From: an uncultured bacterium
Lineage (GTDB): Bacteria; Fidelibacterota; Marinisomatia; Marinisomatales; UBA1611
DNA: 64,000 nt
NCBI GenBank assembly: GCA_943788175.1
Contig: CALSPG010000005.1
Coordinates: 288,001-352,000, forward strand
Direction: 5' to 3'
How positions within the stretch are numbered: the stretch's first letter is position 1; each line of letters starts with the position of its first letter. Below, in pieces: positions 31,695-52,662 of this stretch. Under the pieces are notes generated by a model, which was not told where the DNA came from, did not search any database, and was given only the letters and a program-made list of their open reading frames with translations. The translations under genes and the position numbers were made by a program.

Positions 31695-33697
31695 TGGCTA
31701 GGTTAAACGGGTTTACAAAAAAACAATTAATGGACATATATGGCCTTATGGTTTTAGCGAGGGAACTCGACAATAAGATGCTTATTTTATTAAAGCAGGG
31801 GAAAGGCTTTTTTCATATGGGTTGTTCCGGGCACGAAGCTGCTCAAGTTGCGGCAGGATTAACGTTCAAAAAAGAAAAAGATTGGTCTTATCCTTATTAT
31901 AGAGATGGTGCATATACACTTACGCTCGGAGTAACTATAAAAGAGCATTTATTATCATTTCTTGCTAGGGCAGATGACCCAGCATCTGGTGGAAGGCAAA
32001 TGCCGATGCATTACAGCAATAAGAAATTAAGAATTGTTTCTCAGTCTAGTGCGACAGGAACACAATATCTTCAAGCTGTTGGGTGTGCTTTATCTAGAAA
32101 ATTAGACAATTCAAAAGAAGTGGTATACGTCTCATCAGGCGAGGGGACTACTAGTCAAGGTGATTTCCATGAAGCTCTTAATTGGGCTGGGAGGGAAAAA
32201 GCTCCTGTCATATTTCATATCCAAGATAATGAATATGCGATAAGTACCCACCGTTCAGAACAGACTGCGGGCTCGGTGTACTCACTGGTAAGTGGTTATG
32301 AAAATTTATCAAAATATGAAGTAGATGGCACTAATTTCTTTGAATCACATCTTGCATTTAAACAAGCAGTTGAAAGGGCTAAAAGAGGAAAAGGCCCGTC
32401 AGTCATTGTATCAAATGTGGTTAGGCTGCTGCCTCACTCAAGTTCTGATGACCAAAGAAAGTATAGAAGCGATAAAGCCTTGAAAAAAGACCTTGATCGT
32501 GACCCTATTATCTTATTCAAGAAAAATTGTATTGATGAAGGTATTTTTTCATTAAAAGATGCAGAAAAAATTGAAGCAAAAGCAAAAGAACAAATTGCTT
32601 TAGACGCATCTTGGGCTGAGCTACAAAGTCACCCAGATAAAAAAACAGCCCTGAGGTATGTTTTTAGCGAAGATACGATAAAATCGGAAACTAAATTAAC
32701 AAAGATATCCGATAGTGTAGTTATAGTGGACGCAATTAACCACGCTCTTCATGAAGAAATGGAAAAAAATAATCGTATGGTCATTTTTGGACAAGATATT
32801 GCTGATCCTAAGGGAGGTGTTTTTACGGCAACTAAAGGCCTTTCAACTAAATTTGGCAAAAAAAGAGTTTTTAACTCACCGTTAGCTGAGTCTAGCATCA
32901 TTGGTACAGCGGTTGGGATGGCCGTCACTGGATATAAGCCTGTTGTTGAAATTCAGTTTGGAGATTATATATGGACGGCTATGATGCAGATTCGCAATGA
33001 AGTCTCTGTCATGAGGTACAGGTCAAACAACAATTGGAGTGCTCCCATAGTTATTAGAGTGCCGGTGGGTGGATATATTCATGGTGCATTGTGTCATAGT
33101 CAATCAATTGATGGGTATTTTATACACATGCCAGGTATTTACATAGCTTATCCTTCAAATGCTCGAGATGCTAAAGGATTATTGAAGATGGCTTGCAGAA
33201 TGAAAGATCCAGTAATATTCATGGAACACAAAGGATTATATCGTCAGCCCTACGCCTCTACAGAAGAACCTGGTAAAAACTATATTTTGCCGTTTGGTAA
33301 AGCTAGTTACATTTCTAAAGGGGCTCACATAACTTTAATATGTTGGGGGGCAATGGTTCAAAAAAGTTTAGATGCGATTCAAAGCCTCGAGTTGAGTGAA
33401 GATATTGTAGAAATTATTGATCTTCGAACCCTTAATCCCATTGATTATGATATGATCAAAGAATCAATTACCAAAACAGGTAAAGCACTAGTTGTCTATG
33501 AGGATAATATCACAAATGGTCCGGGTTCAGAAATATGTTCAATCATTGCAGATAAATATTTTGAGTATTTAGATGGTCCTGTTCGAAGGGTAGCTTCAAA
33601 AGATAGTCCAGTGCCATATAATTGGTTTTTAGAAGAAAATGTTTTAGTTCAAACTGAAGATATAGCAAGTGCTATCAAAGAATTGTTGGAGTATTAG
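31694..33697 (+). CDS. 2-oxoacid dehydrogenase E1, fused alpha/beta (branched-chain type likely)
   Basis: GEGTTSQGDFHE TPP motif, PHSSSDD, FNSPLAE, EIQF.DY, HSQS. Confidence 0.9.
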   Translation: MARLNGFTKKQLMDIYGLMVLARELDNKMLILLKQGKGFFHMGCSGHEAAQVAAGLTFKKEKDWSYPYYRDGAYTLTLGVTIKEHLLSFLARADDPASGGRQMPMHYSNKKLRIVSQSSATGTQYLQAVGCALSRKLDNSKEVVYVSSGEGTTSQGDFHEALNWAGREKAPVIFHIQDNEYAISTHRSEQTAGSVYSLVSGYENLSKYEVDGTNFFESHLAFKQAVERAKRGKGPSVIVSNVVRLLPHSSSDDQRKYRSDKALKKDLDRDPIILFKKNCIDEGIFSLKDAEKIEAKAKEQIALDASWAELQSHPDKKTALRYVFSEDTIKSETKLTKISDSVVIVDAINHALHEEMEKNNRMVIFGQDIADPKGGVFTATKGLSTKFGKKRVFNSPLAESSIIGTAVGMAVTGYKPVVEIQFGDYIWTAMMQIRNEVSVMRYRSNNNWSAPIVIRVPVGGYIHGALCHSQSIDGYFIHMPGIYIAYPSNARDAKGLLKMACRMKDPVIFMEHKGLYRQPYASTEEPGKNYILPFGKASYISKGAHITLICWGAMVQKSLDAIQSLELSEDIVEIIDLRTLNPIDYDMIKESITKTGKALVVYEDNITNGPGSEICSIIADKYFEYLDGPVRRVASKDSPVPYNWFLEENVLVQTEDIASAIKELLEY

Positions 33698-34987
33698 ATG
33701 GTTATTGATGTAGTGATGCCTAAAATGGGTGAAAGTATTACTGAGGGTACGATACTTGAGTGGTATAAAAAAATTGGGGATGAAATTGAGCAAGATGAAA
33801 CATTGCTTGAGATAGGAACTGATAAAGTTGACTCTGAGATCCCATCTCCAAGCAGTGGTGTCATTACGATGATAATGGCAGAGCCGAATGATGTTGTAGA
33901 TGTTGGAGAAGTGATTGCCAGAATAGAAACAGATTCCAAGTCAGTAAATTTAGAAAAAAGTTCAGAAGTCCCCAAAGATCAAAAGCCTATTGAAAAGCCT
34001 GAAAAAGTAGTAAAAGAAAAAGATGTTCAAATTCAAAATGAACAAAAATCTTTTAATATATCAAGCTCAACTAAAGGGCCTATCCTTTCTCCGGCAGTCA
34101 CTAAATTGGCGAACCAAGAAGGTATTAGCTTTAGTGAACTGGCATTAATTAAGGGTACTGGGAAGTTAAATCGAATTACAAAAAAAGATTTAGAAATGTA
34201 CTTATCCTCTGGTAATAGATCGATCGACAAAAGTTCAATGCAATTGCCAAAAGAGTCTTCATTAAGTTTTGAATTTGCTTCAAACAGTAAAACAGATAAA
34301 CTAGATAATATGAGGAAAAGAATATCAGAGCATATGCGTTATAGTTTGAATACTTCTGCGCATGTACATATTATGAATGAAGTAGATATGACGGACATAG
34401 TTAATTTTGTCAAGAGAGAGGAGGCTTCTTTTCGCTCTAAAGAAGGGTTTAACCTTACTATAACACCATTTATAATTTTTTCATTAGCAAAAGTTTTAAA
34501 TGAAATGCCTGAATTAAATTCATCTCTTGATGGCGATTTAGTCATTCAACATCCACAAATAAATATGGGCATAGCTGTTTCAGTTGATGGTGGTTTAATG
34601 GTCCCTAGCATTAATAATTGTGGTGAGAAAAATTTGCTGGGTATATGTCGTGATTTAAATGCTATTGTGCAAAAAACTCGAGAGAGAGCTATTAATCCTG
34701 ATGATTTACAAGGCTCAACTTTTACCTTATCTAACTTTGGGGTATTTGGTGCGACAATAGGAACTCCTATCATAAACCAACCTAATGTTGGTATCTTAGG
34801 TACTGGGGTAATTAAAAAGCAACCTGTAGTAATAGAGAAAAATGATTTAGATGTTATAGCTATTAGGCAGATGATGATGCTTTCTCTGGGTTTTGACCAT
34901 CGATTAATTGATGGTGCAGGAGGAGCTTTATTTTTGTCAAAAATTAAAAATATTTTAGAAAATTTTAACTTTGAAAATATTCTTTAA
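33698..34987 (+). CDS. Dihydrolipoamide acyltransferase E2
   Basis: MPKMGES, TDKVDSE lipoyl site, GTG...RITK.D, FDHRLIDG. Confidence 0.92.
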   Translation: MVIDVVMPKMGESITEGTILEWYKKIGDEIEQDETLLEIGTDKVDSEIPSPSSGVITMIMAEPNDVVDVGEVIARIETDSKSVNLEKSSEVPKDQKPIEKPEKVVKEKDVQIQNEQKSFNISSSTKGPILSPAVTKLANQEGISFSELALIKGTGKLNRITKKDLEMYLSSGNRSIDKSSMQLPKESSLSFEFASNSKTDKLDNMRKRISEHMRYSLNTSAHVHIMNEVDMTDIVNFVKREEASFRSKEGFNLTITPFIIFSLAKVLNEMPELNSSLDGDLVIQHPQINMGIAVSVDGGLMVPSINNCGEKNLLGICRDLNAIVQKTRERAINPDDLQGSTFTLSNFGVFGATIGTPIINQPNVGILGTGVIKKQPVVIEKNDLDVIAIRQMMMLSLGFDHRLIDGAGGALFLSKIKNILENFNFENIL

Positions 34988-35850
34988 TGTCAGAATTAAT
35001 ACAAAAACCTCACAAACCAAAGATTAAGCTCCAAATAGGAGAGAATTATAAATTTGTCAATAATGTTGTTAAAAATTATAATTTAAATACTGTATGCGCT
35101 GAAGCCAATTGTCCAAATATATACGAGTGTTGGAATAGAGGAACAGCTACGGTTATGATACTTGGAGATACTTGCACAAGAGCTTGTGGATTTTGTGCTG
35201 TTAAAACTGGTAAACCATCTTGGGATGATCCATTAGAGCCATATAGGACTGCGATGGCAGTCAAAAAGATGGATTTAAATCATGTCGTTATTACTAGTGT
35301 AGACAGAGATGATATAAAAAATGATTATGGTTCATCAATTTGGGCTAAAACAATTGAAGAAATACATAAGAATGTTCCAGGGTGTACGGTTGAAGTCCTG
35401 ACACCTGATTTTCAAGGTCACAGTGCTTCATTGGAAAAAGTTTTTCGCGCTAATCCTGAAATATTTAGTCATAATGTAGAATGCGTTGAAAGAATAAGTA
35501 AAGAGGTAAGAACCCAATCTAATTGGCAAAGAAGTTTAAATGTGCTTAGAAGTTCGGCAAACTATGGATTACGAACAAAAACGGGTATTATGGTTGGTCT
35601 AGGTGAAACTTTTGATGAAGTTCTAAAAACAATGGAAGAAACATATTATGCTGGGGTCTCTATCTTTACAATTGGGCAGTATTTACAACCAACTGGAAAG
35701 CATCTTAAAGTACAGCGGTACGTCTCTGATACAGAGTTTAAAAATTATAAAAATTTTGGTTTGAAAATAGGCTTTGATGTTATCGAGTCTGGGCCTCTAG
35801 TTCGTAGCTCTTATCACGCAGATGAACAAGCTCGAATCATAAGAAGATAA
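34987..35850 (+). CDS. lipA: Lipoyl synthase
   Basis: CxxxxCxxxxxC plus CxxxCxxC, GQYLQP, RSSYHA. Confidence 0.96.
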   Translation: MSELIQKPHKPKIKLQIGENYKFVNNVVKNYNLNTVCAEANCPNIYECWNRGTATVMILGDTCTRACGFCAVKTGKPSWDDPLEPYRTAMAVKKMDLNHVVITSVDRDDIKNDYGSSIWAKTIEEIHKNVPGCTVEVLTPDFQGHSASLEKVFRANPEIFSHNVECVERISKEVRTQSNWQRSLNVLRSSANYGLRTKTGIMVGLGETFDEVLKTMEETYYAGVSIFTIGQYLQPTGKHLKVQRYVSDTEFKNYKNFGLKIGFDVIESGPLVRSSYHADEQARIIRR

Positions 35851-35991: not shown

Positions 35992-38397
35992 ATGGCTGAT
36001 AAATTATCAGAAAAAGACATCGAAAACATAAATATTGAAGGCTCCGAGGAGTATGCTGTTATGCCATTGCGTAATACGGTATTATTTCCCCAGCAGGTTA
36101 TTCCGATTTATATTGGAAGAGAAAAATCACTAAAACTCATATCTGACATTGAGCTTGAAAAGAAAAAATATATAATTGTTGTTGCGCAGGAAGATGGTTC
36201 AATCGAAGATCCAAATACTGAGGACCTCTACTCATATGGAACCTTAGCGACTGTTCTTAAGGTTTTTGCGATGCCTGATAATAGTAAATCAGCTATTGTT
36301 CAGGGTATCGCCCGTGTTAAAATTTTAGATTACTTGAGTAAAGAACCATACTTTAAAGCTGTTGCAAGTAAAGTAAATGACGATCCAATAGTAGATGAAT
36401 TAGAAATTGATGGTATTACTGAAAACTTTAGAAAATCTTTTTCAGACCTTATTAAAGTTGCTCCGAACCTAACGGAAGAACATACAGGCATGTTATCTAA
36501 TATAAAAAAGGCGAACAGATTAGTTGATCGAGCTATTTCTCTTATGACTTTATCGAACCAAGAGAAGCAAGAAATTCTTGAGGAAGTCAATATAAAAAGT
36601 AGATTAGAAAAAGCAAATTCGATTATTAATAGAGAGACACAAAGAATTAAGCTTGGCGAAGAGATTCAAACTGAAGTTCATGATGAAATTGCGAAAACTC
36701 AGAGAGAGTATTATCTCAGAGAGCAAATGAAAGCAATTCAAAAAGAACTCGGTGAAGACGAAGGGACAGTAGAAACTAAAGAATTAGAGGAGCGAATTAA
36801 AGCTGCGAAAATGCCAGAAGCTTCTGAATCTGTGGCTATGAAAGAATTAGATAGGTTGTCCCGAATTCCTACCCAGTCTCCTGAGTACAATGTTTCAAGA
36901 ACCTATATAGAATGGATTGTAGATCTCCCATGGAGTAAATCATCAGAGGATAGAGTAGATTTAGAAGAGGCCTTAAAAATTCTTGACCATGATCATTATG
37001 GATTAGGAAAAGTTAAAGATAGAATTATTGAATATTTAGCTGTTAGAAACTTAAAACAGAAAAGAAACCCGGATGGTAGTGTTAGAGGTCCTATATTATG
37101 TTTTGGTGGTCCTCCTGGAGTAGGTAAAACATCATTAGGTAAATCTATAGCTAGGGCAATGGGGAGAGAGTTTATAAGGTTATCTTTAGGTGGTGTAAGA
37201 GACGAAGCAGAAATTAGAGGGCATAGGAGAACTTATATTGGCGCTCTTCCAGGAAGAATAATTCAAAACATTAAAAAAGCAGGAACAAATAATCCCGTAT
37301 TTATGTTGGATGAAGTGGATAAATTAGGATCAGATTATAGGGGTGATCCATCCTCAGCGATGTTAGAAGTTCTAGACCCTGAGCAAAATCATTCTTTTAA
37401 TGATCACTATCTTGAGCTTGATTTTGATTTGAGTAAAGTTATGTTTATTGCGACTGCAAATAATTATGGGAATATTCCACCTGCTTTACGAGATAGAATG
37501 GAAATGCTAGAATTTTCAGGATATATTCAGGATGAAAAGCTTCAAATAGCAAAAAAGCATTTAATACCGAAACAGGTAAAAGAAAACGGACTTACTAAGT
37601 CAGAAGTATCAATGGATAATAACTCGATTAAGGAATTAATTAGTTCTTACACTAGAGAAGCAGGTGTTAGACAGCTCGAGAGGGAAATAGCAAATGTGTT
37701 GAGAAAAGTTGCTAGGGATATTGTTGAAGATAAAGAAAAAAATATAAAGGTAACTAAATCGAAAGTTCAAGACTATTTAGGAGCCTCTAAATTTTATTCT
37801 GATCTAGCAGAAAGAGCGACAGAACCAGGAGTCGTCACAGGTTTAGCTTGGACTGCTGCTGGGGGCGATATTCTCTTTATTGAGTCTTCAAAAATGAAGG
37901 GTAAGGGTAAGTTAACCCTGACAGGTCAATTAGGAGATGTAATGAAAGAGTCAGCAACTGCAGGCATGACATATGTTAGAGCGCATGCGAATGATTTTGG
38001 AATTGAGTCAAATTTTAACGAAGAACTTGATTTGCATGTCCATGTTCCAGCAGGAGCTATTCCGAAAGATGGTCCCTCAGCAGGTGTTAGCATGATAACA
38101 TCATTAGTCTCTCTTATAACTGGTGTCCCTGTTAAAAGCAAAGTGGCAATGACTGGTGAAATAACACTTAGAGGTAATGTCTTGCCGATTGGTGGGGTAA
38201 AAGAAAAAGTTACCGCTGCTCATAGGGCTGGTATTAAAGAGGTCATATTACCTTACTTAAATCAAAAAGACATTGAAGATGTACCTGAAAACGTATCTAA
38301 AGATATTAAATTTCATTTTGCGAAAGAAATCTGGGATGTTTTAAAGGTCGCATTGCCAAAGATTGCAAAGAACAGGAAAAATACTAAAGCTAAATAG
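35992..38397 (+). CDS. lon: ATP-dependent protease La
   Basis: GPPGVGKTS, GHRRTYIGA, PKDGPSAG, IGGVKEK. Confidence 0.97.
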   Translation: MADKLSEKDIENINIEGSEEYAVMPLRNTVLFPQQVIPIYIGREKSLKLISDIELEKKKYIIVVAQEDGSIEDPNTEDLYSYGTLATVLKVFAMPDNSKSAIVQGIARVKILDYLSKEPYFKAVASKVNDDPIVDELEIDGITENFRKSFSDLIKVAPNLTEEHTGMLSNIKKANRLVDRAISLMTLSNQEKQEILEEVNIKSRLEKANSIINRETQRIKLGEEIQTEVHDEIAKTQREYYLREQMKAIQKELGEDEGTVETKELEERIKAAKMPEASESVAMKELDRLSRIPTQSPEYNVSRTYIEWIVDLPWSKSSEDRVDLEEALKILDHDHYGLGKVKDRIIEYLAVRNLKQKRNPDGSVRGPILCFGGPPGVGKTSLGKSIARAMGREFIRLSLGGVRDEAEIRGHRRTYIGALPGRIIQNIKKAGTNNPVFMLDEVDKLGSDYRGDPSSAMLEVLDPEQNHSFNDHYLELDFDLSKVMFIATANNYGNIPPALRDRMEMLEFSGYIQDEKLQIAKKHLIPKQVKENGLTKSEVSMDNNSIKELISSYTREAGVRQLEREIANVLRKVARDIVEDKEKNIKVTKSKVQDYLGASKFYSDLAERATEPGVVTGLAWTAAGGDILFIESSKMKGKGKLTLTGQLGDVMKESATAGMTYVRAHANDFGIESNFNEELDLHVHVPAGAIPKDGPSAGVSMITSLVSLITGVPVKSKVAMTGEITLRGNVLPIGGVKEKVTAAHRAGIKEVILPYLNQKDIEDVPENVSKDIKFHFAKEIWDVLKVALPKIAKNRKNTKAK

Positions 38398-38428
38398 AGT
38401 AATATTTCTTAATATTATCGTACATATT

Positions 38429-38502
38429 GGGCGTTTAGCTCAGCTGGTCAGAGCGCTGCCCTTACAAGGCAGATGTCGGGAGTTCGAATCTCTCAACGCC
38501 CA
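38429..38502 (+). tRNA. tRNA-Val (anticodon TAC); CCA not encoded
   Basis: Acceptor GGGCGTT/AACGCCC, D-arm AGCTCAGCTGGTCAGAGC, anticodon arm CTGCC-ctTACaa-GGCAG, T-loop GTTCGAATC. Confidence 0.96.
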
Positions 38503-38510
38503 CTTCTCAG

Positions 38511-38540
38511 AAACCCTCGTTTATTGACGGGGGTTTTTGT
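38511..38540 (+). terminator. Intrinsic terminator after tRNA-Val (repeated after the right att copy at ~48477-48506)
   Basis: aaaccctcgt-ttattg-acgggggttt followed by T-rich tract. Confidence 0.75.
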
Positions 38541-38739
38541 TTTTATATAAGTCTGTCAAAGTTATCATTCCTTATCATTGTATGACATTTATAATAATTG
38601 GACACATATTTGGAGGACACAACCTAATTCAATTCTTATCTCAACCAAAGTAGGGGGGCATACCCCGTTTGATAGGGGGGGTAGGTATGTGTATATAAGA
38701 CGCTCACACATTGAAGGGTAATTTTTTGTAGGTTTAGAT

Positions 38740-38892
38740 ATGGAAATAATTAAGAAATTCTTTGATGGTATTGCTAAGTTTAATTTGAGGAAGTTGAAAG
38801 ATGCTTTTCCATCAATAGCAGATAAGATTGATGTAAGACTAACTCCACCCGATGATGATGCATATTTTACTAACCTTTTAAAGGTCATATAA
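38740..38892 (+). pseudogene. Remnant of a paralogous integrase C-terminus
   Basis: AKFNLRKLKDAFPSIADKIDVRLTPPDDDAYFTNLLKVI* aligns to AKFNLRKLRDDFPSLKERINLRLTPPSEDSYFTTLLNAI* ending at 48316. Confidence 0.8.
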
Positions 38893-39070
38893 GGAATCCT
38901 TTTTACTACATACTCGGTTTTAAAGAGGGGACGTACTTACCCATATGATAGTTAAGTGATTGGGTATTTATATAACCAAAATATTCTACAAATTTAATTC
39001 TATCAATATTAAGTTTTCCCTCTGTTTAAACCTTTTTAATTAACATACCTATCATAAATATTTTTAGAAA

Positions 39071-40993
39071 ATGAATGAAGACATTAAACTTGCTATAAAA
39101 ATTCGTTCCATTGAGGAAAATTTTCTTGAAATGTTTTCCGAGGGTTTATTAAATGGTACAGTTCATACATGCATAGGACAAGAGCTGTCAGGCGTAGGGA
39201 TATCAAAATTTTTAAATAGAGACGATTTTGTTTTTAGTAACCATAGGTGCCATGGTCATTATATTTCATTTACTAAAAAATATAAAAACTTAATAGATGA
39301 ACTAATGGGGAAAGAATCTGGAGTATGTGGTGGCATTGGTGGTAGTCAGCATATAGCGAGTGATAATTTCTTTTCTAATGGGCCTCAGGGGTCTTTGGCA
39401 CCTGTTGCAGTTGGCGTAGCTGAAGGTTTAAAACGCAAAAAAAATAACTCTGTTTCTGTTTGCTTCATCGGTGATGGCACAATGGGTGAAGGTATAATCT
39501 ATGAATCTATGAACTTGATGTCCCTTTATGAATTGCCGATGATTTTGGTATGCGAAAATAACATGTATGCACAATCAACTAGTATAAAAAGTAATTTATC
39601 GGGCGATATCAATTTAAGAGCATCTTCATTTGGAATAAAAGTTTATGAACTTAATACTTGGGATTATGAGGGTCTAATAAAATCCTCTCAAGAGGCAATA
39701 TCAAACGCAAGAAAAAATATCCCATCTTTCATTCATATTAATACTTACAGGTTAAAGGCTCATTCAAAAGGAGATGATAACAGAGATGGAAATGAAATTA
39801 AAGAATTCGAAAAAAAGATTTAATAAATAATTTTATCTTAAACAATGATGAATACGCTAAATATTATAAAGAAATAAAAGATAAAATTAGAGCTTATTCT
39901 AATTCAGTTAGTGAAAATTCTCAAATGGACAAAAATAAATATGTGGACGGTGAGAAGCTTAAACTATATAAAAAAATATTCATTATGTGATGTGAGAATT
40001 GAAAAAAAGCAATCAGATTTAATTAATAATTATTTTCATGAAAGCATAAATGATGATAAAAATATTTTATTGATTGGTGAAGATATTAAAGATCCTTATG
40101 GCGGAGCTTTTAAAATAACAAAAGGGTTATCTGATAGATATAATGAAAATGTTATTTCCACCCCTATTTCTGAAGCTGCAATAGTAGGCATGGGTATTGG
40201 ACTATCCATTCTAGGCTTTAAGCCTTACGTAGAAATCATGTTTGGAGACTTTATCACATATGCGTTTGATCAAATAGTTTCTAATGCTTCTAAGTTTTAT
40301 CATATGTACAATAAAAAGTACAATGTCCCTCTAGTTATAAGGACTCCCATGGGTGGAAATAGAGGCTATGGGCCAACACATTCACAAAGTATTGAAAAAT
40401 TCTTCATTGGCGTAAATAACATTCAAATAGTCGCGCTTAATACATTATTGAAGCCAAAAGAAATATATGAATCAATTAAAAATTTTAAACATCTTACACT
40501 TTTAATCGAAAATAAAGTTGATTATGGAAGATTAATCAATTATTCGCCTAAATCTATTAATTATGAATTCAAAAAATCCGACTCTGATTATCCGATAATT
40601 ACTGGAGAGCCTGTCAGTGCTAAAGCAAAAATAAGTGTTATTACTTATGGTGGTTCTATCCATCCTGTATTAGAAAGCATAGACGATATATTTTTTGAGT
40701 TTGAAGAATTTATTAAAGTAATTGTAATTACTAAACTGTATCCACTCGACATGGAAGAATTATCATTACTAACAAAGGATTCTTATTTTATAATTACGGT
40801 AGAAGAGAGTAATATTGAAGGTGGGTTTGGTTCAGAAATAATCTCTGGTCTTTCAGAAATAGAAAATGAAAAACAAAAAAAATACTTAAGGATTGGTTCG
40901 GAAAATGTACCTATACCATCAACAAAAAAACTTGAAAGTGAGATTTTAGTTTCTAAAGATTTAATTGTCCGAAAAATGAAAGAAATGTTATGA
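39071..40993 (+). CDS. Divergent PDH-like E1 alpha/beta (probably one fused ORF broken by two compensating A-run indels at ~39815 and ~39972)
   Basis: HTCIGQE, HRCHGH, GDGTMGEG TPP motif, TYR..AHS; beta part STPISEA, EIMFGDF, GPTHSQS; ORFs 39071 and 39911 share a frame, bridged by an open shifted frame. Confidence 0.8.
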
Positions 40994-42189
40994 GCGTAAT
41001 TGAAACTTTGAAAATCCCTCAAGATAATGTAAACGATAATGATGTGACTATATCAAGCATTTTCATTGAAAAGAATGATTATGTTGATGTAAATACTCTT
41101 GTTTTAGATTATGAGACATCAAAAGCAAATTTTGAATTATTTATTACAAAGTCAGGCTATGTGCAGCTTAATTGCAAAGAGGGGGAGATTGTTAAAATTG
41201 GACAAACTATTGGTATTGTTTCAGATGACAAAGATTACGTCCATCAATTTGAAGAAAATATAAATGAGAAAGAATTTTCTAAACAAACATTCAGCAAAAA
41301 AGCAGAAATTTTAATTAATGAAATGTCAATTGATAAGAGTGTCTTTAAGTATGAACAATTTGTCACTGAGGAAATTGTTAGAAATTTTTTAAATGATTCA
41401 AATGACATTATACCAAGTGGTGACATAATTAAAATTTCTCCACGAAAATATTTTGAGATAAAAAACTTAACTAATGTTAGTAGGAACGGGCTCGTTTCTA
41501 CAATTGAAAAAACAATCAATAGTTCTATAGTTGATACGGACTCAATTTATGAAAAAAATGAGTTTAAAGGGTCATTATCTATTTTGCTCATTAAAGTAAT
41601 ATCAGACTTACTTAAAATAGAAAAATATAAACATTTAAATAGTTATTGCGACGGGGAAAATATCTATATTAATAATGATGTAAATTTTGGTCTAGCGCTC
41701 AATTTAGGTTCTGGTCTAAAAATAGGAGTTATAAAAAAATCTAATTCTTTATCAATTAATGAAATAGAATCAAAAACAATACAGTTAATAGATAAATACA
41801 TTGATGATAAACTTCAAAAAGAAGATATTGAGGATTTTTCAATTGTATTGACTGATTTAACAGAAAAAGAGATTGATAACTTTACACCTCTCATTACTTC
41901 TTCAAATACAATAATGATTGGTTTATGTGGAGTAAAAGGTTCAACCCAAAGATTAATAATCTCATTTGATCACAGAGTTTCAGATGGATTAGAAATTGCA
42001 AATTTTATGAATGATATTATATCAACTTTAAAAAATGAATATCCCAATTTTATTGATGAAAATAGTTGTTCATCGTGTTTAAAAACTATTGAAGAAGATA
42101 AAGAGCTTGATACTCCGGGTCTAATAAGAATACTAGGTCATGATAAAACATTAAAATTCATTTGTAGAAATTGTTTAGAAGGATTTTAA
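40990..42189 (+). CDS. Divergent E2-like acyltransferase with lipoyl domain and C-terminal CxxC...CxxC extension
   Basis: ETSKA lipoyl-lysine motif, SFDHRVSDG catalytic motif, CSSC...CRNC tail. Confidence 0.78.
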   Translation: MSVIETLKIPQDNVNDNDVTISSIFIEKNDYVDVNTLVLDYETSKANFELFITKSGYVQLNCKEGEIVKIGQTIGIVSDDKDYVHQFEENINEKEFSKQTFSKKAEILINEMSIDKSVFKYEQFVTEEIVRNFLNDSNDIIPSGDIIKISPRKYFEIKNLTNVSRNGLVSTIEKTINSSIVDTDSIYEKNEFKGSLSILLIKVISDLLKIEKYKHLNSYCDGENIYINNDVNFGLALNLGSGLKIGVIKKSNSLSINEIESKTIQLIDKYIDDKLQKEDIEDFSIVLTDLTEKEIDNFTPLITSSNTIMIGLCGVKGSTQRLIISFDHRVSDGLEIANFMNDIISTLKNEYPNFIDENSCSSCLKTIEEDKELDTPGLIRILGHDKTLKFICRNCLEGF

Positions 42190-42191
42190 AC

Positions 42192-42413
42192 ATGAGCGAT
42201 CTAATAATAAAAAAAATAGTTTCAGTATTTCTTAAAACTAAACCGAATAAAATTACAAATGATACCATAATTGACACCTCGGTAATACAGGGGAGTGTGT
42301 TGTTTCATAGAATGATTGCACGTATAAATGATTATTGTAATATTGAAATTGAAAATTATGATAAAATTCATACTTTCCAAGATTTATTAGATCAAATTAA
42401 ATTAAAGCAATGA
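42192..42413 (+). CDS. Acyl carrier protein-like (atypical)
   Basis: ~73 aa; Ser in 'QGSV' at the expected helix-2 position, TFQDL C-terminal pattern; followed by PPTase. Confidence 0.55.
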   Translation: MSDLIIKKIVSVFLKTKPNKITNDTIIDTSVIQGSVLFHRMIARINDYCNIEIENYDKIHTFQDLLDQIKLKQ

Positions 42414-42417
42414 GTTT

Positions 42418-42738
42418 TTGTTAAGATTTGGTGTTGATATTATTGAAATTGATTCATTCCCATCTTTTATTAAAGGTAAGGATGATTCTTTCTTTTTGTA
42501 TAATTATACAAAAAGCGAAATAGAATTTGCTAAAAACAAACTCAACCCGGATATTGAGTTTGTTAAAATGTTTTCAATTAAAGAGTCTCTTGTCAAGTCA
42601 GACAATTTATTAGTAGGAAAGAATTTTAATAAAATAGAATTGTCATTTGTTGGGGATTGTTATATTTATAATGATTACAAGATAACTACATCAACTGCGA
42701 ACAATAATTGCATATCATTTGTTTTAAGCACTACGTAA
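42418..42738 (+). CDS. 4'-phosphopantetheinyl transferase (AcpS-like)
   Basis: GVDIIEI, YT..EI, FSIKES..K. Confidence 0.75.
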   Translation: MLRFGVDIIEIDSFPSFIKGKDDSFFLYNYTKSEIEFAKNKLNPDIEFVKMFSIKESLVKSDNLLVGKNFNKIELSFVGDCYIYNDYKITTSTANNNCISFVLSTT

Positions 42739-42873
42739 TCTTTTGTAGGCATAATAATTGGTTTAATGTTATGGAGGTGTAAGTAGGGTATGCTTTAAAA
42801 CGGAGGATGAACAGATGAACACTTATTACATATACTACCTACACTATTGAGATGTATGGATTTATATATAAAC

Positions 42874-43773
42874 CTAATTAAGGAGTTCGGGGTAGTCATC
42901 AATATCATCTAAACTATCACTTAAATATTTGGCATCATCGTTACGAAGTAAGTGAGGTGCATATAGAACTAATAGATTAAGAATAGTTTTATCAGTACAT
43001 CCATAGTGTTCAGATAATTTCTTCTTATTGATGTTTCCATTCTTTTTAAATCTGATCGAGTCTACAACCTTTTCTAATCTTCCACTTTCTAAGTCTTCTT
43101 GAAATGCAACTTCGTATCTTTTATTTTTGTATTTCTTTTTTAACTCACGCTCTTTTAATAAGGCTTGTGTTGTTACCCTTAATTGATTTTCTAAAACACT
43201 TGCAGAAGTATGTACCACGGGTTTTTCTGTTTCAGATAAATTTGGTAAAGTATTTGCATCAAGTAAGGTAGGGGCAAAGTCTATCATAACACCCTTTACT
43301 TGAAACCAATTTTCAAATTCTAATTTAGGTTTATAAAGAATATGTTCATCAGATATGAACTTGCTTCTGCCGTCATTAAAACTTTTAGGTAACATATTAA
43401 TTATCCAAGTGTATATCATTTTATTAAAGGCTATACAAAAGTTCTTATTATCAAGATTCAAACCTTTGATGTAAGAATATTGATTATCAAGAGTAACTTG
43501 ATGAACTAATTTTTCTCCTTGCTTATATTTCCAAGTAGTTGGCTGATTGAAATAAACATTAAAAGAATACAATGGGAACTCATATTCTTCACCATAACCC
43601 CATTTCTGATAATTCGCTTCGATACCTAATTCATTTTGTTGCTCATTATAGAACTGATTGAAGTCTTGAATCTTTTTATTGATTCTTGTTAAAACTCTTA
43701 ATCTGTCTTTCTCATCTCCCCTTATCCATTCATCGGTATAGGGTTTTGTTATCTCTCCTATCAGTAAACTCAA
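42874..43773 (-). CDS. Element-encoded hypothetical protein with possible C-terminal HTH
   Basis: NKKKLSEHYGCTDKTILN HTH-like segment; divergent from the excisionase-like gene. Confidence 0.5.
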   Translation of the reverse strand: MSLLIGEITKPYTDEWIRGDEKDRLRVLTRINKKIQDFNQFYNEQQNELGIEANYQKWGYGEEYEFPLYSFNVYFNQPTTWKYKQGEKLVHQVTLDNQYSYIKGLNLDNKNFCIAFNKMIYTWIINMLPKSFNDGRSKFISDEHILYKPKLEFENWFQVKGVMIDFAPTLLDANTLPNLSETEKPVVHTSASVLENQLRVTTQALLKERELKKKYKNKRYEVAFQEDLESGRLEKVVDSIRFKKNGNINKKKLSEHYGCTDKTILNLLVLYAPHLLRNDDAKYLSDSLDDIDDYPELLN

Positions 43774-43949
43774 CCTTGTTTGTTATATACCCCACCCCAA
43801 GCAAAATTAATAGGGAGTAGTTCTTTTAGTTTATCATTATCGATATAATCTGAATTAATCTTATTAGCCTCACACATTTTGTAGATCATTTCTATCAATC
43901 CTATTTGTTCATAGGCATCTTGTAATGTAGGTGTTTTCTTTTCTTCCAT
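43770..43949 (-). CDS. Small hypothetical protein (likely start MEEKKTP)
   Basis: Stop overlaps the start of the 42874..43773 ORF. Confidence 0.45.
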   Translation of the reverse strand: MEEKKTPTLQDAYEQIGLIEMIYKMCEANKINSDYIDNDKLKELLPINFAWGGVYNKQG

Positions 43950-44066
43950 ATTTCTTTTTTCGGAGTAATTCCGAAATAATTCGGATTTCGGATGGCGCGA
44001 ATTTATGATGTAATAGGGTATGGCACAACTAATCAAGGTTGGTCATAAACCAATAGGAAATGAATA

Positions 44067-44285
44067 ATGGAAATAAGAATAGTTGAATTATTAAATGAAA
44101 TAAGAACTCTAATACTTGGCAAGGTAAATGAGAGATGGTTGAATCTCAGAGATGTATCTGAATACACATCTGTTTCAGAAAGTACAATTCGTAGGGCAAT
44201 CAAAAAAGGTGTCCTTAAATCATCAAACAAAACGGGAAGATTACTTTTTAAAGTATCTGATGTTGATAGGTGGCTGAACTCATAA
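44067..44285 (+). CDS. Excisionase/AlpA-like helix-turn-helix protein
   Basis: WLNLRDVSEYTSVSESTIRRAIKKG.L...GRLLF..SDVDRWL. Confidence 0.82.
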   Translation: MEIRIVELLNEIRTLILGKVNERWLNLRDVSEYTSVSESTIRRAIKKGVLKSSNKTGRLLFKVSDVDRWLNS

Positions 44286-46206
44286 TGGATTACACCCATA
44301 TCTTTGAAAGAGACTTCAAATAGAAGTTAATAAGCGAAGTGGGATTCAATGGCAAGGTAGATGTCCATTACCAAGCCACGAAGATAGAAAAGCATCCTTT
44401 TCTTGGAATATAGATAACGGACTATGGAAATGTCACGGGTGCTTTGAATCGGGGAATGCTTATCAATTAGCAGAAATATTAGGTATAGCAAACCCATCCC
44501 AATATATAGAAAAAGAAACGGGGGGATATAGGAACAACCCCCCTCCAATACAGAAAGTTAATGTAATGAGTAGTGAAGAACTCGATGCACTTAAAAAAAA
44601 GTATCACTCAAATCTAACTGAACAAGATACCACATTTACCAATCCATATACAATACACGGAAGACGGGATGATGGGAATTTAGTTTTCTTTCTACCCGAT
44701 GCAATTAAGCATCACAAGTCTCAACCATATTGGGAGGGCAACAATAAGAAGTGTCAAATATTTGGTAGTGAATATCTTGCTGAGATAGATGCGAATGATA
44801 CTCTATACATATTCGAGGGAGAAAAAGAAGTATGTTACTCTCCATACAAGGGAATCAGTTTCACGGCTGGTGCTGGAAATGTTCCCGAAGACTTATCTCA
44901 ATTATACGCCTATAAAGATATTTGCATCATTCCCGATAATGATGATGCTGGATATAAGGGTGCTGATAAATGGGCAAAGGTCTGTTCAAGTAAATGGGGT
45001 GCATCCGTAAGGATTGCACAATGGGATGAGACACTCCCAAAAGGTTACGATGTGTATGATGATTATGTCCGTTCAACAAATGGAGATGAAGATTACATAT
45101 TTGATGAAACCGATAAGGCAATCAGCAAAGCAATCCCCTTTAAAGAAAATAACCACAAAACTGAAATTGGAGGTTTCAATACAATGGCAATAAACAACTA
45201 CATACAAACATATCAAGATGAAGAAGTAAGTCATATCATAGATGGATTATTAGTTAAAGGAGGTGTGACAATCCTTGCTGGTTCTGATGGAGTTGGTAAG
45301 TCTTGGTTAGGTTTACAAATGGGATTCTGTATCTCAAATGGAAATGAGTTCTTAGGTTGGGAAACAAAGAAGATGCCCGTTCTGCTTATTCAATTTGAAT
45401 TAGGTACGGCTCAACTGAAAGATAGATTACAGATACTATCTAAATCCTATGATATGAATACTGATTTCAATGTGGTAGACCTATCAGATGAAGACCTCAT
45501 CTTTACAGATGCTTGGGATAAGATAGAACAGACTATTGATAATCAATCTTTTACGGATGGAGTTATCATTGTAGATAATCTATATGCAAGTACTGATAAG
45601 GATGTATCTCAAAATCACGAACTCAAACCTATCTTAAAAAAGATAAGAAAGTTGTGTGTGGAGTATGACAATGCTTTTGTCTTGATTGCTCATCACAATA
45701 AGAACGAAAAAGATGATGAGCCGATCCTGACAAAAAAACTGATAACGGGAGGGAAGACACTTACAAATTTCCCCAACAATGTTATTCAAGTTGGCAGTAG
45801 CAGTTTAGGTAATGACATCTTTAGAGGCAAGATTACAAAGATAAGAGATAAAGGTAGTGATTTAATAAACATTCCTTTTATCCTCAACTTTGACCAAGAC
45901 ACTTGTGTTTTTTCAAGGGGTGTAATCATTGTATCTGAGATACTTCATTGCCAACCCATTAAAAAGAGATGGGAATATGAATTGCTTATAGACTTCCTTG
46001 CCTATCAATCTAATGAGGCGTTTACTCGTTCAAGGTTATGGCAATTCCTATCTACAAAAGACGGATGGGAAAAGACTCCATCAAATCAAACTAAGGTTAC
46101 AAGGTTTCTAAGTAGAATGAAAACTTGGGGATTCATTATAGAGCGTGAATACAATCTGTATGAATTAAGCCTTGAAGATATAAGGAGGCTGGAAGAAGAA
46201 AGATGA
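44285..46206 (+). CDS. Primase-helicase: CHC2 zinc finger + Toprim + AAA (RepA/AAA_25-like); frameshift near 44320
   Basis: In frame upstream of 44566: CPLPSHEDRKASF...WKCHGC; EGEKE and PDNDDAG Toprim; GSDGVGKS Walker A; IIVDN, AHHNK. Confidence 0.82.
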
Positions 46207-47200: not shown

Positions 47201-48316
47201 ATGGCTACATATATAAAACAAAGAAAACGTCAGTACTCATCCCGTATTCAATGGAGAGACTGAGAATGGTAATAAGAGAGAACGAAAAATACCTCTTAAA
47301 ACTTCTTCTAAATCTGTTGCAGTAGTCAGAAACAATGAAGTAACGAAAGTTGAAGATACTATTATCGATGGAGATAATTGGTCTTTTGCTTGGATGAATG
47401 ATGATGGTAAAAGTTAAACTAATTAGATTATCTATTAGCGAGGCTTATGAAGAATATAGGATTGTCCAAAACATAGATGGAGTGAGAGCGTCTACGCTCG
47501 ATCGAGTTGATAACTCTATGAAGACACTATATAAAGTCTTTGGAGAGAACTATCCAATAGCATCATTAACATACTCGCATATAGAACAATTCAAAGAGTA
47601 TTGGCACGGAACACATCAACCAACTACAATGAATATTAATCTATCAAAGATTAAAGCGTTTCATAATTGGTGTCTTAAAAAAAGATATACTATAAAAGAT
47701 GTAGAGTTTAAGATGGTTAAGGAAGATGAAAAGCCTCCACAATATCTAACAGATGCTGAGTTTAAAAGCATAATGAAATGTGATATAATAGATGACCATT
47801 TCAAGAAAGCATTTGTATTCTATTTGTATACGGGTTGTAGAAAAACAGAACCATTTATTGCAGACTTAAATGGTAATTGGCTTACAATCAAATCAACAGA
47901 TGCTAAGTCTCACAGAACTCGTGATATTGAATTAAATGAAGTAACTAAGGGCATAGTTCAAGATATGAGAGATAGGTATCATTACTATATGGATGAATAT
48001 GCACAGAAACCAAGAAATGTGATTATGAACTATGGTAAGCAGTTCAAAAAGGCTTGTAGATACTTAGGTATCAAGGGCAAGACCTTACATTCATTGAGAC
48101 ATACTTATGCAGTTAGACGCTGGGCAATCACGGGAGACATTAAGATGGTATCTCAAGAGATTGGTCATAGTCTCAGTAGTGATGACAGAGAAGTATGCTA
48201 AGTTCAATCTTAGAAAGTTAAGAGATGATTTCCCCTCATTAAAAGAGCGTATCAATCTTAGACTTACTCCACCAAGTGAAGACTCATATTTTACTACGCT
48301 TTTAAATGCTATTTAG
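47201..48316 (+). CDS. Tyrosine recombinase/integrase, three frameshifts (~47261, ~47410, ~48172)
   Basis: YTGCRKTE (R), HSLRHTYA (HxxR), GHS / MTEKYA (H, Y) across frames; AGGAG RBS before ATG 47201; next to the att repeat. Confidence 0.88.
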
Positions 48317-48415: not shown

Positions 48416-48650
48416 AGAGCGTTGCCCTTACAAGGCAGATGTCGGGAGTTCGAATCTCTCAACGCCCACTCCTCAGAAACCCTCGTTTATTGACGGGGGT
48501 TTTTGTTTTTCTACAAGTCTGTCAAAGTCGTCATTCCTTATCATTGTATGACATTTATAATAGGAACTTTGGAGGCTACCAAGCCCTAATTCAATTACTT
48601 ATTTCAACCAAAGTAGGGGGGCATACCCCGTTTGATAGGTCGGTAGGTAT
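48416..48650 (+). repeat. Right att copy plus ~180-bp extended direct repeat of 38450-38688
   Basis: Partial tRNA copy, terminator and downstream sequence, including a 36-bp identical block (38641-38676 = 48604-48639). Confidence 0.9.
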
Positions 48651-48789: not shown

Positions 48790-49002
48790 CTATTTAGGTA
48801 CTACGTTTGTTGCGCAAGGACCTTTATCAGAAGAACCTTCTTCATAATCAACTTCCTGCCCGTCTCTTAAGGTTTTGTACCCATCCATTTGAATCTCATT
48901 CATATGAACAAATAAGTCTTTATCACCATCTTTTGGTGCTATAAATCCAAATCCTTTTTTATCATTGAACCATTTTACGGTTCCTTCTTTTACATCACTC
49001 AT
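48790..49002 (-). CDS. Cold-shock protein (CspA family)
   Basis: GTVKWFN..KGFGFI, DLFVH, KGP.A.NV. Confidence 0.95.
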
Positions 49003-49159
49003 TTTATTATTTTCCTACTTTTGTTTATTTATTCAATTATTACTTATTTAATTGAATACTGCAATTTAATACTGTTATTACATAAATAAATTTAATTATT
49101 ATTTAAGTCTATAAAAAAATATATTGCATAGTTTAATCACATTATCACAATTTTTGATA

Positions 49160-49483
49160 ATGAAAAAATCGATAAATAAATTCATTTTAACTGGGATAGC
49201 TCTTTTATTTTTTAGCTCGATTTTTCATTTAGATCATACTCCGGCGCACGAGCATCAAAATGGATACAACATATGCAATATAGGATGTAAGGATATTGAG
49301 CATCATTCTTATTCTCATCAATGTGAAAAGTGTTTAAGCAAAACCCAAAGATATGTAAGTGTAAATCTTTTTGATTTATCACTTCATAACAACTCAACAT
49401 CATTTGACAATCCTAAAGACATTACTTTTTCTAAATTCATAAATTTTAATTCAAATAAAAGAGCCCCACCCATTATCCTTTAG
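49160..49483 (+). CDS. His/Cys-rich leader protein ending in RAPP (DUF2946-like), copy 1
   Basis: N-terminal hydrophobic helix, HxH, GYNICNIGC-x4-HH-x5-CEKC, KRAPPIIL*. Confidence 0.75.
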   Translation: MKKSINKFILTGIALLFFSSIFHLDHTPAHEHQNGYNICNIGCKDIEHHSYSHQCEKCLSKTQRYVSVNLFDLSLHNNSTSFDNPKDITFSKFINFNSNKRAPPIIL

Positions 49484-49673
49484 ATTTTATTAAAGGAGCA
49501 ACAGTTTCAGTAAAAATACATTTTGTATGCAATGAGTGCATGCCAGTTTCGTATTTGTCGTAAACATCTATCATCAATTTTTCAGTAATGATTATAATTG
49601 AATTATGATTGAGAAATTTGATGCTCCTAAATCTTTGTTCAAAAATATCTTTTGAAAATCATAAAGGAAACAA

Positions 49674-50087: not shown

Positions 50088-50121
50088 ATTATTTAATGTT
50101 TTTTTAATGAGAGGATGAAGA

Positions 50122-50370: not shown

Positions 50371-50374
50371 ATTT

Positions 50375-52603: not shown

Positions 52604-52644
52604 AAAAAAACTAAAAGCTGCCCAGACATTGATCTAGGCAGCTT
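52604..52644 (-). terminator. Hairpin plus T-tract between lipoprotein and TonB receptor
   Basis: Minus strand aagctgcctaga-tcaatg-tctgggcagctt then ttagttttttt. Confidence 0.6.
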
Positions 52645-52662
52645 CTTGTCTAATTACTACGA

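Follow-up and report, generated by a model that had tools for sequence, protein, structure and literature searches.

To our knowledge, only a few secondary-metabolite pathways are documented in which PDH-like E1 and lipoyl-E2 enzymes load a carrier protein directly. Loading of a glycolyl unit onto an acyl carrier protein (ACP) in Qnc/Nap-type pathways was reportedly described by Peng and colleagues in 2012. A dedicated small carrier is also found in the Dlt system (DltA/DltC/DltB/DltD), in which it hands its acyl group to an MBOAT protein in the D-alanylation of teichoic acids. The donor for several MBOAT-type polysaccharide acyltransferase systems is, as far as we know, not settled.

According to the parts of PMC6335953 drawn on here, the Qnc, Nap, and Scl E1/lipoyl-E2 systems put a glycolyl unit on an ACP and have no E3 in the cluster, and SclQ1-4 and SclP, of scleric acid biosynthesis, share the domain set of QncN/L/M. 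PMC9570651 contains nothing on the Qnc/Nap loading step. In the sections of PMC5384830 used here, which concern pepteridine of Photorhabdus, a PDH-like E1 works alongside an E2 that carries an NRPS T and C domain as fusion partners (plu2796); the acyl group, derived from a 2-oxoacid, is proposed to go straight onto the carrier instead of CoA, and E3 is absent and borrowed from the host.

Here we describe a cassette encoding E1, lipoyl-E2, ACP, and an AcpS-type phosphopantetheinyl transferase (PPTase) in a 64,000-nt stretch of DNA from an uncultured bacterium (the window). Judged by domain description, as far as the excerpts of PMC6335953 go, the cassette resembles the Qnc/Nap/Scl systems in its ThDP, pyrimidine-binding, transketolase-C, lipoyl, and acyltransferase domains, in its free-standing ACP, and in the absence of E3, and a PPTase is present both in scl and here; the comparison with quinocarcin and naphthyridinomycin loading made in an earlier, sequence-only reading of the window is borne out at the level of the domain set. 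Compared with what those excerpts describe, E1 is here a single alpha-beta fusion, the tail of the separate E2 is a zinc ribbon, most relatives of the cassette have ACP and PPTase fused, and there is no NRPS hand-over. In addition, the cassette neighbours are glycosyltransferases and a WcaF-family acetyltransferase or an MBOAT, and the cassette occurs in Bacteroidota and further Gram-negative phyla, not in actinomycetes, the hosts of Qnc/Scl. In the pepteridine system, as those sections present it, E2 and the carrier form one protein and a condensation domain acylates a pterin, whereas the present ACP is either free or joined to the PPTase and is found in a setting of glycan synthesis. The cassette shares with Dlt the dedicated small carrier and, in two related loci, an MBOAT with DltB as best match, but Dlt is loaded by an adenylating ligase, whereas loading here would be by E1 and lipoyl-E2, and the window has no MBOAT partner in its island or genome. 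No description of a glycan-linked cassette was found in the open-access literature searched.

A compact E1-E2-ACP-PPTase cassette

Motifs, Pfam matches, homologue alignments, and a structural model of the ACP place all four genes at 39071-42738:

39071..40993, plus strand: fused ThDP-dependent E1 (alpha+beta; 640 aa in relatives), from Pfam E1_dh, Transket_pyr, and Transketolase_C
40990..42189, plus strand: divergent E2 with lipoyl domain (Lys45), degenerate linker, acyltransferase domain (DHRxxDG), and CxxC...CxxC tail, from Pfam 2-oxoacid_dh, alignment, and PDB profiles
42192..42413, plus strand: private acyl carrier protein, 73 aa, with Ser35 as likely phosphopantetheine site, from homologues, model, and Foldseek
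42418..42738, plus strand: AcpS-type 4'-phosphopantetheinyl transferase, 106 aa (PF01648, 32.5 bits against a cut-off of 25)

The junctions are 4-nt overlaps or spacings of 2-4 nt, and the GC fraction is 0.27-0.30, against 0.32-0.38 for the upstream host genes. The E1 translation carries the GDG...NN ThDP motif, with E1_dh (PF00676) matched on the first open reading frame (ORF) and Transket_pyr (PF02779) and Transketolase_C (PF02780) on the second. In E2, the lipoyl Lys45 lies in ETSKA, the catalytic domain matches PF00198 and contains FDHRVSDG at residues 326-333, and the zinc-ribbon tail reads CSSC...CRNC; PDB profiles match the catalytic and lipoyl domains of E2p. Across an alignment of 22 E2 sequences, Lys45, His328, and Gly333 are invariant, while Asp332 is present here and not invariant.

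The ACP matches no Pfam family, PP-binding included, and scores 22.5 bits with NCBIfam NF002150 against a cut-off of 66, but its predicted structure (pLDDT 91) has the ACP fold: all matches listed by Foldseek contain an ACP, with TMq of 0.69-0.83 (0.77-0.83 for the first ten). Ser35, which is invariant in 22/22 homologues and sits at the start of helix 2 (residues 35-49) in the model, is the likely phosphopantetheine attachment site. The sequence-only reading had described an AT-rich, tight operon, an E2 with one lipoyl Lys, an intact HxxxDG, and a CxxC/CxxC tail, and an atypical ACP with its own AcpS; each of these descriptions stands.

A predicted complex of the E2(150-399) trimer with the ACP scores 0.58 (runs at 0.58, 0.58, and 0.53; best of three controls, 0.00), with at least 84% of contacts agreeing among runs and a partner pLDDT of at least 84. 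In the calibration, the mark was reached by 116/157 solved complexes and 2/215 mismatches, and scores of at most 0.60 occurred in only 18/157 solved complexes and in both mismatches reaching the mark. The prediction weakly supports a hand-over from E2 to the ACP.

Relatives of the cassette lie in polysaccharide loci

A survey of E2 and ACP gene neighbourhoods, which the earlier reading had called for, found 343 genome loci, of which 80 were retained. Wherever 2 kb or more is available upstream of E2 (67 loci), both E1 halves are present, in one open frame in 63 cases, and where the sequence extends 800 nt or more beyond E2 (73 loci), an ACP or AcpS match follows in 64; these linkage counts are not independent, because the counted loci are mostly from Chitinophagaceae. 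By gene order, E1-E2-ACP-PPTase is a fixed cassette among the 80 loci. Furthermore, ACP and AcpS matches fall within one open frame in 38/58 loci, and in 52/58 the open frame that holds the ACP has 235 codons or more; in most relatives the ACP and PPTase are fused into a single protein.

The neighbours of the cassette are genes of glycan synthesis. Specifically, all 11 relative loci that were annotated belong to polysaccharide synthesis, their genes including GT1/GT4, GT2, Wzx, GDP-mannose dehydratase, and CpsB, and the phylum-level groups with such loci, as named in the records, number at least six (Bacteroidota, Omnitrophota, Ignavibacteria, Planctomycetes, Proteobacteria, and delta-proteobacteria). 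A conserved hexapeptide protein is encoded within 2.5 kb upstream of E1 in 45 of the 58 loci having at least 2.5 kb there, and all three of those proteins tested pass the NCBIfam WcaF-family cut-off. A DltB-like MBOAT occurs in 3/80 loci (L001, L012, and L063); DltB is the best NCBIfam match in L001 and L063, with 156 against a cut-off of 375. In L001, which belongs to the same genus as the window, the MBOAT gene directly follows AcpS within a glycosyltransferase/sulfotransferase locus. In proteins P0074 and P0092 a lipoyl domain is fused to a hexapeptide acyltransferase domain, and P0074 also has a PglD N-terminal domain.

The island that carries the cassette encodes no transferase recognisable by Pfam, PADLOC, or PHROGs, as the sequence-only reading had stated, and the same is true of the genome, a 92% complete assembly, for MBOAT, Acyl_transf_3, and an orthologue of the cassette-linked WcaF-type protein. 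Searched by tblastn with the MBOAT found in relatives, the gene that follows it there, WcaF-type proteins, and one glycosyltransferase, that genome gave nothing at E < 1e-3, while the window's own proteins, the positive control, were recovered. The inference that the acyl-ACP serves surface-glycan modification has the polysaccharide loci of the relatives in its favour and is, overall, partly supported.

The missing partner speaks for a lipid destination, such as a fatty-acid starter or lipid A acylation by LpxA/LpxD, which are hexapeptide enzymes using acyl-ACP. For such a purpose the island could do without a transferase of its own; its copies are under selection without one adjoining, and contig C7 has hexapeptide genes of LpxA/LpxD size, putatively lpxA and lpxD. 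However, neither ketosynthase nor other fatty-acid genes lie beside the cassette in the 11 annotated loci, all of them polysaccharide loci, and the closest relative, in the same genus, pairs the cassette with an MBOAT amid glycosyltransferases and sulfotransferases. We regard a lipid destination as distinctly unlikely.

The cassette is carried by an island at tRNA-Val

The cassette lies inside an island of ~10 kb at tRNA-Val, flanked by direct repeats of ~230 nt:

38429..38503, plus strand: tRNA-Val (TAC), integration target, from ARAGORN
38450..38676, no strand: left direct repeat, attL-like (3' part of tRNA-Val and ~170 nt beyond), 96-100% identical to 48416-48639
38740..38892, plus strand: integrase 3'-end remnant, 73% DNA identity to 48196-48315, from a repeat search and ORF translations
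42874..44036, minus strand: island gene without assigned function, two ORFs as assembled (299 and 88 aa)
44067..44285, plus strand: HTH_17 excisionase/AlpA-like regulator, from Pfam HTH_17 and phrog_66
44326..46206, plus strand: primase-helicase (CHC2 zinc finger and AAA_25), from Pfam and PHROGs
47398..48316, plus strand: tyrosine integrase, from Pfam Phage_int_SAM_5 and phrog_1
48416..48639, no strand: right direct repeat, attR-like, from a repeat search

The repeats with the tRNA 3' end, the integrase, the HTH excisionase, and the primase-helicase give the island a P4-like layout in its genes and repeats, in line with the mobile module of the sequence-only reading. A search of the genus for an empty tRNA-Val site returned one good match (G045), which stops at its contig end. 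The minus-strand gene belongs to no Pfam, PHROGs, or PADLOC family, and its 299-aa ORF has no usable match in the protein atlas; its homologues are single proteins of 329-358 aa, and the model of one full-length homologue, P0121, has a mean pLDDT of 53. In other strains (L081 and the loose ends of X2 contigs), an integrase 3' end lies immediately upstream of the cassette.

Several island genes are interrupted as assembled. The integrase frame is broken in its N-terminal part and before the catalytic Tyr, the primase-helicase has no start codon upstream of 44566 (an X2 contig has an extra A behind 44317), and E1 forms more than one ORF, with a stop at 39821-39823. The 155 nt after this stop encode the homologous linker in a different frame, and the original frame returns after the A-run at 39970-39976; aligned to L001, L081, and L083, the E1 interruptions sit at this A-run and at that of 39810-39816. 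All public contigs that cover both sites (from X1, X2, X5, and X15; three DNA runs from three studies and one RNA run) have an extra A after 39809 and lack one base at 39970, and the E1 frame is intact in every one of them; one X1 contig shows no further difference over 401 nt. The close relatives L083 (97% DNA identity) and L081 (88%) likewise have a single E1 ORF of 640 aa. The assembly differs from public contigs by six more single-base indels within 38.4-44.4 kb, and elsewhere in the genome a TonB receptor is split into five pieces, so that the two 1-nt breaks in E1 are most likely assembly errors; were they real in the source strain, this copy of the cassette would be inactive. The fused E1 of the earlier reading therefore holds for the organism, as the public contigs, L081, and L083 have one frame, but not for the assembly, in which the frame is cut.

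The interruptions of E1 and the integrase, the missing transferase, and a 1.2-kb stretch at 46.2-47.4 kb without an ORF of at least 80 codons (the longest has 46) would speak for a cassette in decay and no longer functional, left over from a polysaccharide locus and picked up by a mobile element. Besides the evidence for assembly errors, dN/dS values of 0.06-0.25 in all five gene segments, relative to the island-context copies L081 and L082, argue against decay and indicate that the island copies are under purifying selection. We consider decay very unlikely, and because of the dN/dS values and the absence of the E1 breaks from public contigs, the truncated cargo that the sequence-only reading had offered as an option is unlikely too. 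Metatranscriptome contigs of X15 map to E1-E2 (39181-42172), with no such contig at 43023-44400, a weak hint of cassette transcription, with DNA carry-over possible.

Relation to canonical dehydrogenase complexes and to conflict systems

In the folds and catalytic motifs of E1 and E2, the cassette resembles canonical PDH/BCKDH complexes. PDH E1 (alpha and beta) and E2p are its best family and PDB matches, and the best-matching structures come from human and bacterial enzymes. A divergent but ordinary catabolic 2-oxoacid dehydrogenase (for pyruvate, acetoin, or branched-chain substrates) making acyl-CoA, with ACP and AcpS as unrelated neighbours, would fit these matches, and the host has an E3. 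However, the NCBIfam equivalog scores are far under cut-off for E1 (alpha 194 against 394; beta 140 against 321) and E2 (all matches under, e.g. 64 against 449), the island has no E3 gene, as had been read from the sequence, and Pfam does not detect the E3/E1-binding domain (PF02817) in the cassette E2, whereas it finds it in the host E2 at 33698-34987. Moreover, the host already has canonical 2-oxoacid dehydrogenase complexes at 31694-34987 and on contig C7, and in the cassette family the partner is an ACP-PPTase, linked as above and mostly fused, in a setting of glycan synthesis. An ordinary catabolic complex is thus highly improbable, and the conserved linkage supports the dedicated module that had been claimed. 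The genome has a single Lpd (E3) above cut-off, outside the island, and because the cassette E2 lacks a Pfam-detectable E3/E1-binding domain, use of this host E3 is an assumption. The host lipA (34987-35850) and lipB (31059-31694) do lie 3-8 kb upstream of the cassette, as had been noted, but since the island integrated at tRNA-Val, this closeness is probably a coincidence.

An anti-phage or other conflict system acting by a mechanism unrelated to glycan decoration might be suspected from the cargo position between integrase, excisionase, and primase-helicase genes at a tRNA and from the patchy spread (2/54 genomes of the family and 4/233 of the order, two of these four being weak partial matches), but it is scarcely credible, as no PADLOC model matches any cassette protein, a viral contig collection scanned with the E2 alignment gave 37 pattern matches and no relative, and the family is chromosomal in the 343 genome loci, which are glycan loci where annotated. 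PHROGs has no match for E2, ACP, AcpS, or the minus-strand gene, and NRPS domains are found neither in the island nor in the 11 annotated loci. The cassette or part of it is present in 20 seawater metagenome runs from 14 studies; the metagenome scan yielded only three close loci, all short.

Discussion

By analogy with the carrier-loading systems, we favour with moderate confidence the reading that E1 and E2 load a short acyl group on the private ACP, not on CoA, for acylation of a glycan. In this scheme, whose acyl group, individual chemical steps, and acceptor we infer, the fused ThDP enzyme E1 would accept a small 2-oxoacid or perhaps a ketose phosphate and transfer the acyl unit reductively to the lipoyl-lysine of E2. 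The CAT-like domain of E2 would then give the acyl group to the phosphopantetheine thiol of the ACP rather than to CoA, the ACP would have been primed by the neighbouring AcpS, and the lipoyl arm would be re-oxidised by the host's sole lipoamide dehydrogenase. The acyl-ACP would be the donor for acylating a surface or extracellular polysaccharide, and in the relatives the taker would most likely be the adjacent WcaF-family hexapeptide acyltransferase or the DltB-like MBOAT. Because no taker is encoded on the island, the island cassette may be a donor-only cartridge working with a resident transferase. Against this glycan-acylation reading, acetyl-CoA might be expected to serve were the unit acetyl, and it is unclear why it would not.

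A more far-reaching version, which we think unlikely, has a mobile supply-side cartridge of E1, lipoyl-E2, ACP, and PPTase moving between marine flavobacteria and providing a resident sugar acyltransferase with an unusual acyl-ACP, whose acyl might be glycolyl or some other non-CoA group. A candidate for this taker is the hexapeptide enzyme encoded beside a DegT aminotransferase in a polysaccharide locus on contig C10. Such a cartridge would rewrite surface-glycan acylation and could bring about serotype or phage-receptor conversion without a transferase of its own.

If confirmed, glycan acylation from the cassette would be a new way to supply acyl groups to glycans and might bear on the donor of MBOAT-type polysaccharide acyltransferases. 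The carrier-loading logic would here be embodied in a fixed cassette whose ACP-PPTase is self-priming. What the window contributes is a supply module that is mobile by itself, kept under selection, and widespread in seawater metagenomes.

The cassette is cargo of a tRNA-integrated island

Direct repeats of 96–100% identity (38450–38676, comprising the 3′ part of tRNA-Val and ~170 nt downstream, versus 48416–48639) flank the cassette, which is therefore the cargo of a tRNA-integrated island. The GC content of the cassette is 0.27–0.30, versus 0.32–0.38 for the upstream host genes. The layout is as follows.

Host genes, island and flanking features of the window
31059–31694, lipB, host gene
31694–33697, canonical fused E1, host gene
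33698–34987, canonical E2 with E3-binding domain, host gene
34987–35850, lipA, host gene
35992–38397, Lon, host gene
38429–38503, tRNA-Val
38740–38892, integrase 3′ remnant, between the repeats, before the cassette
39071–42738, cassette E1-E2-ACP-AcpS, between the repeats
42874–44036, minus strand, gene without assigned family, between the repeats
44067–44285, HTH_17 excisionase-like gene, between the repeats
44326–46206, primase-helicase (CHC2 zinc finger/AAA_25), between the repeats
47398–48316, tyrosine integrase, between the repeats, last island gene

The 1.2 kb between the primase-helicase and the integrase contains no ORF of at least 80 codons, the longest having 46. The CHC2 zinc finger of the primase-helicase (44326–44565) is encoded in frame 5′ of the called start, where no start codon is present; since a contig of X2, a public marine DNA run, carries an extra A behind 44317, the true start probably lies further upstream. 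A MerC-family gene (49674–50087) sits ~1 kb past the right repeat and adjoins a cold-shock-like gene (48790–53188 region) and a TonB-dependent receptor. Relatives of the island excisionase (48–50% identity) and integrase (28–33%) are found on two other contigs of the same genome (C8, 5275–8168; C2, 40327–42350), so related islands are probably present elsewhere in it.

The frame breaks in E1 are most likely assembly errors

In the assembly a stop at 39821–39823 interrupts E1; the 155 nt that follow code for the homologous linker in a different frame, and beyond the A-run 39970–39976 the first frame is restored. The close metagenome loci L083 (97% identical DNA) and L081 (88%) each have a single 640-aa E1 ORF, and the differences fall exactly at both A-runs. 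We aligned contigs from X1, X2 and X5 (marine metagenome runs, each of a different study) and from the metatranscriptome X15 to 38400–44400. All contigs over the first E1 site carry an extra A behind 39809 (depth with extra A/total: X1, 3.8/3.8; X2, 23.4/23.4; X5, 7.84/7.84; X15, 2.7/2.7), and at the second site one base is missing at 39970 in all DNA contigs covering it. The X1 contig over 39734–40134 is otherwise identical to the window; X1 alone is not independent, as this best-matching run may be the sample behind the genome assembly, while X2 and X5 are independent. Assembly errors most likely account for the E1 frame breaks.

Comparison with otherwise identical or near-identical public contigs reveals eight single-base indels at homopolymers in 6 kb (38674, 39028, 39809, 39970, 42794, 43741, 43790 and 44317). 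The two assembled ORFs (299 and 88 aa) of the minus-strand island gene represent one gene: its homologues, which form only eight clusters, are single proteins of 329–358 aa, and correcting three of the six indels outside E1 joins the ORFs into one of 386 codons. This gene matches no family in Pfam, PHROGs or PADLOC, and its structure model is of low confidence, the helical C-terminal part being predicted better; it is transcribed divergently from the excisionase and primase genes and is unlinked to the cassette in L081. On contig C6 (L096, 3709–6560), a TonB-dependent receptor is split into five ORFs as assembled. Until the assembly is polished, its apparent pseudogenes should not be relied on; the contig comparison ends short of the integrase, whose interruptions may be either real or artefactual.

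The cassette encodes divergent PDH-like enzymes and a carrier protein

E1 contains the Pfam domains E1_dh, Transket_pyr and Transketolase_C. Among solved structures it is nearest to PDH E1 alpha and beta, and PDB and NCBIfam scores place it closer to pyruvate-type than to branched-chain E1. E2 carries the lipoyl residue Lys45 in the motif ETSKA, the motif FDHRVSDG, and a CxxC...CxxC tail; Lys45, His328 and Gly333 are invariant across a 22-member alignment of the E2 family, and the tail is kept by most members. The Pfam search found no E3_binding domain in the cassette E2, and every NCBIfam score for E1 and E2 is far under the equivalog cut-offs.

The 73-aa ORF assigned as ACP matches no Pfam family and has only a weak NCBIfam ACP match. 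Its residue Ser35 is invariant in 22/22 homologues, helix 2 begins at residue 35 in its structure model (pLDDT 91), and the top Foldseek matches of the model are all acyl carrier proteins (TM 0.77–0.83). The 106-aa ORF assigned as AcpS scores above the PF01648 cut-off.

Linkage of the carrier to E1 and E2 is conserved in relatives

Searching with E2 returned ~70 clusters of this divergent family, with marine metagenomes as the source of many. A scan with one genome per species gave 343 loci; the counts below come from a retained set of 80. Both E1 halves are present in all 67 loci with room upstream, in one open frame in 63. The sequence-only reading had tied E1 and E2 to a dedicated carrier, and the gene-neighbourhood survey bears this out: an ACP or AcpS match is found in 64 of the 73 loci with room downstream of E2, although such counts overstate the support because kin are not independent. 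Among the nine exceptions, L078 at least shows a Pfam ACPS domain in the ORF that follows E2.

Most relatives (e.g. L002, L016 and L051) encode ACP and AcpS as one protein of 245–285 aa just after E2, a self-priming carrier. In 38/58 loci a single open frame contains both the ACP and the AcpS match, and in 52/58 the open frame around ACP spans at least 235 codons; of the remainder, four reach a contig end and two (L001 and L068) have an intervening stop. Separate genes occur only in the window's lineage (the window, L081, L082 and L001) and in L068. The fusion provides strong evidence that the small protein serves as the substrate of the PPTase. Taxa in the record titles are mostly Chitinophagaceae, together with Omnitrophota, Ignavibacteria, Planctomycetes, Geobacteraceae, Magnetococcales and Polynucleobacter. 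Among the Chitinophagaceae, L051 and L016 come from isolates of Niastella caeni and Pinibacter aurantiacus, respectively.

Relatives reside in glycan loci with candidate acyltransferase partners

In 11 Pfam-annotated loci, the neighbours include glycosyltransferases (GT1/GT4 and GT2), Wzx flippases, GDP-mannose dehydratase, CpsB, methyltransferases and sugar aminotransferases. Of the 58 loci with room, 45 encode a conserved hexapeptide protein (~185 aa) within the 2.5 kb preceding E1, two more encode it elsewhere in the locus, and 11 lack it; all three tested proteins score above the cut-off of the NCBIfam 'WcaF family extracellular polysaccharide biosynthesis acetyltransferase'. An MBOAT, with DltB as best match (under cut-off), is present in 3/80 loci; in L001 (genome G049, of the window's own genus) it directly follows AcpS within a glycosyltransferase/sulfotransferase locus. 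Furthermore, in two E2 search matches (P0074 and P0092) a lipoyl domain resembling the one in the cassette E2 is fused to a hexapeptide sugar acyltransferase domain; P0074 has a PglD N-terminal domain as well. These fusions suggest a variant whose lipoyl arm would feed the transferase without an E2 catalytic domain or ACP.

A proposed PDH-like relay ending on a carrier protein

The reading with the best support is a PDH-like relay whose end point would be a carrier protein. Specifically, E1 would make an acyl-ThDP-derived unit and pass it on, in a reductive step, to the E2 lipoyl arm; the E2 catalytic domain would then acylate holo-ACP, and the lipoyl arm would be re-oxidised by host Lpd, of which the genome encodes one. 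PMC6335953 describes such a relay for QncN/L/M and proposes one for SclQ1-4 and SclP, and PMC5384830 proposes one for the pepteridine E1/E2-T-C enzymes, with E3 likewise missing. A search of the open-access literature found no paper on a glycan-linked cassette.

Complex prediction for an E2(150–399) trimer with ACP scored 0.58, versus 0.00 for the best of three controls; the mark is reached by 116/157 solved complexes and 2/215 mismatches, and a score ≤0.60 is seen in only 18 of the 157 solved complexes and in both passing mismatches. At least 84% of contacts agree between runs, and partner pLDDT is at least 84. The predicted complex lends the relay weak support. O-methyltransferase genes adjoin E1 in two loci (L023 and L052); they would fit a hydroxy-acyl unit, e.g. 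glycolyl, as a hint only.

Island-type copies are conserved on an island without a recognisable transferase

Pfam, PADLOC and PHROGs searches revealed no recognisable transferase on the island. The genome (92% complete) yielded no MBOAT and no Acyl_transf_3, and tblastn with the partners of relatives gave no match; other small hexapeptide genes exist in it. A host polysaccharide locus on contig C10 (L097, 2853–12453) encodes Wzx, a methyltransferase, GT56, a hexapeptide acyltransferase (assembled as two pieces of 81 and 91 aa) adjoining a DegT aminotransferase, GT4 and two GT2; this locus might use the acyl-ACP of the island in trans.

The cassette is uncommon in kin, occurring in 2/54 genomes of the family and 4/233 of the order, two of the latter being weak partial matches. 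Twenty public runs (14 studies), all marine or seawater, contain the stretch or part of it, and 13 of these runs have half of its words or more. In both the window and L083 (3–640) the cassette comes after an integrase 3′ remnant; L083 has an additional integrase end and att copy upstream, in a tandem arrangement. In L081 the cassette again directly follows an integrase 3′ end (523–705, 92% identical to the end of the window's full integrase), beside a LamG-like host gene, and the visible 1 kb downstream contains no transferase. Relative to L081 and the close metagenome locus L082, dN/dS is 0.06–0.25 for E1, E2, ACP and AcpS (dS 0.3–0.7). Island-type copies are conserved at the protein level although no transferase is recognisable on the island; what is new here is a supply module that stands alone on a mobile island and is kept there by selection without a transferase.
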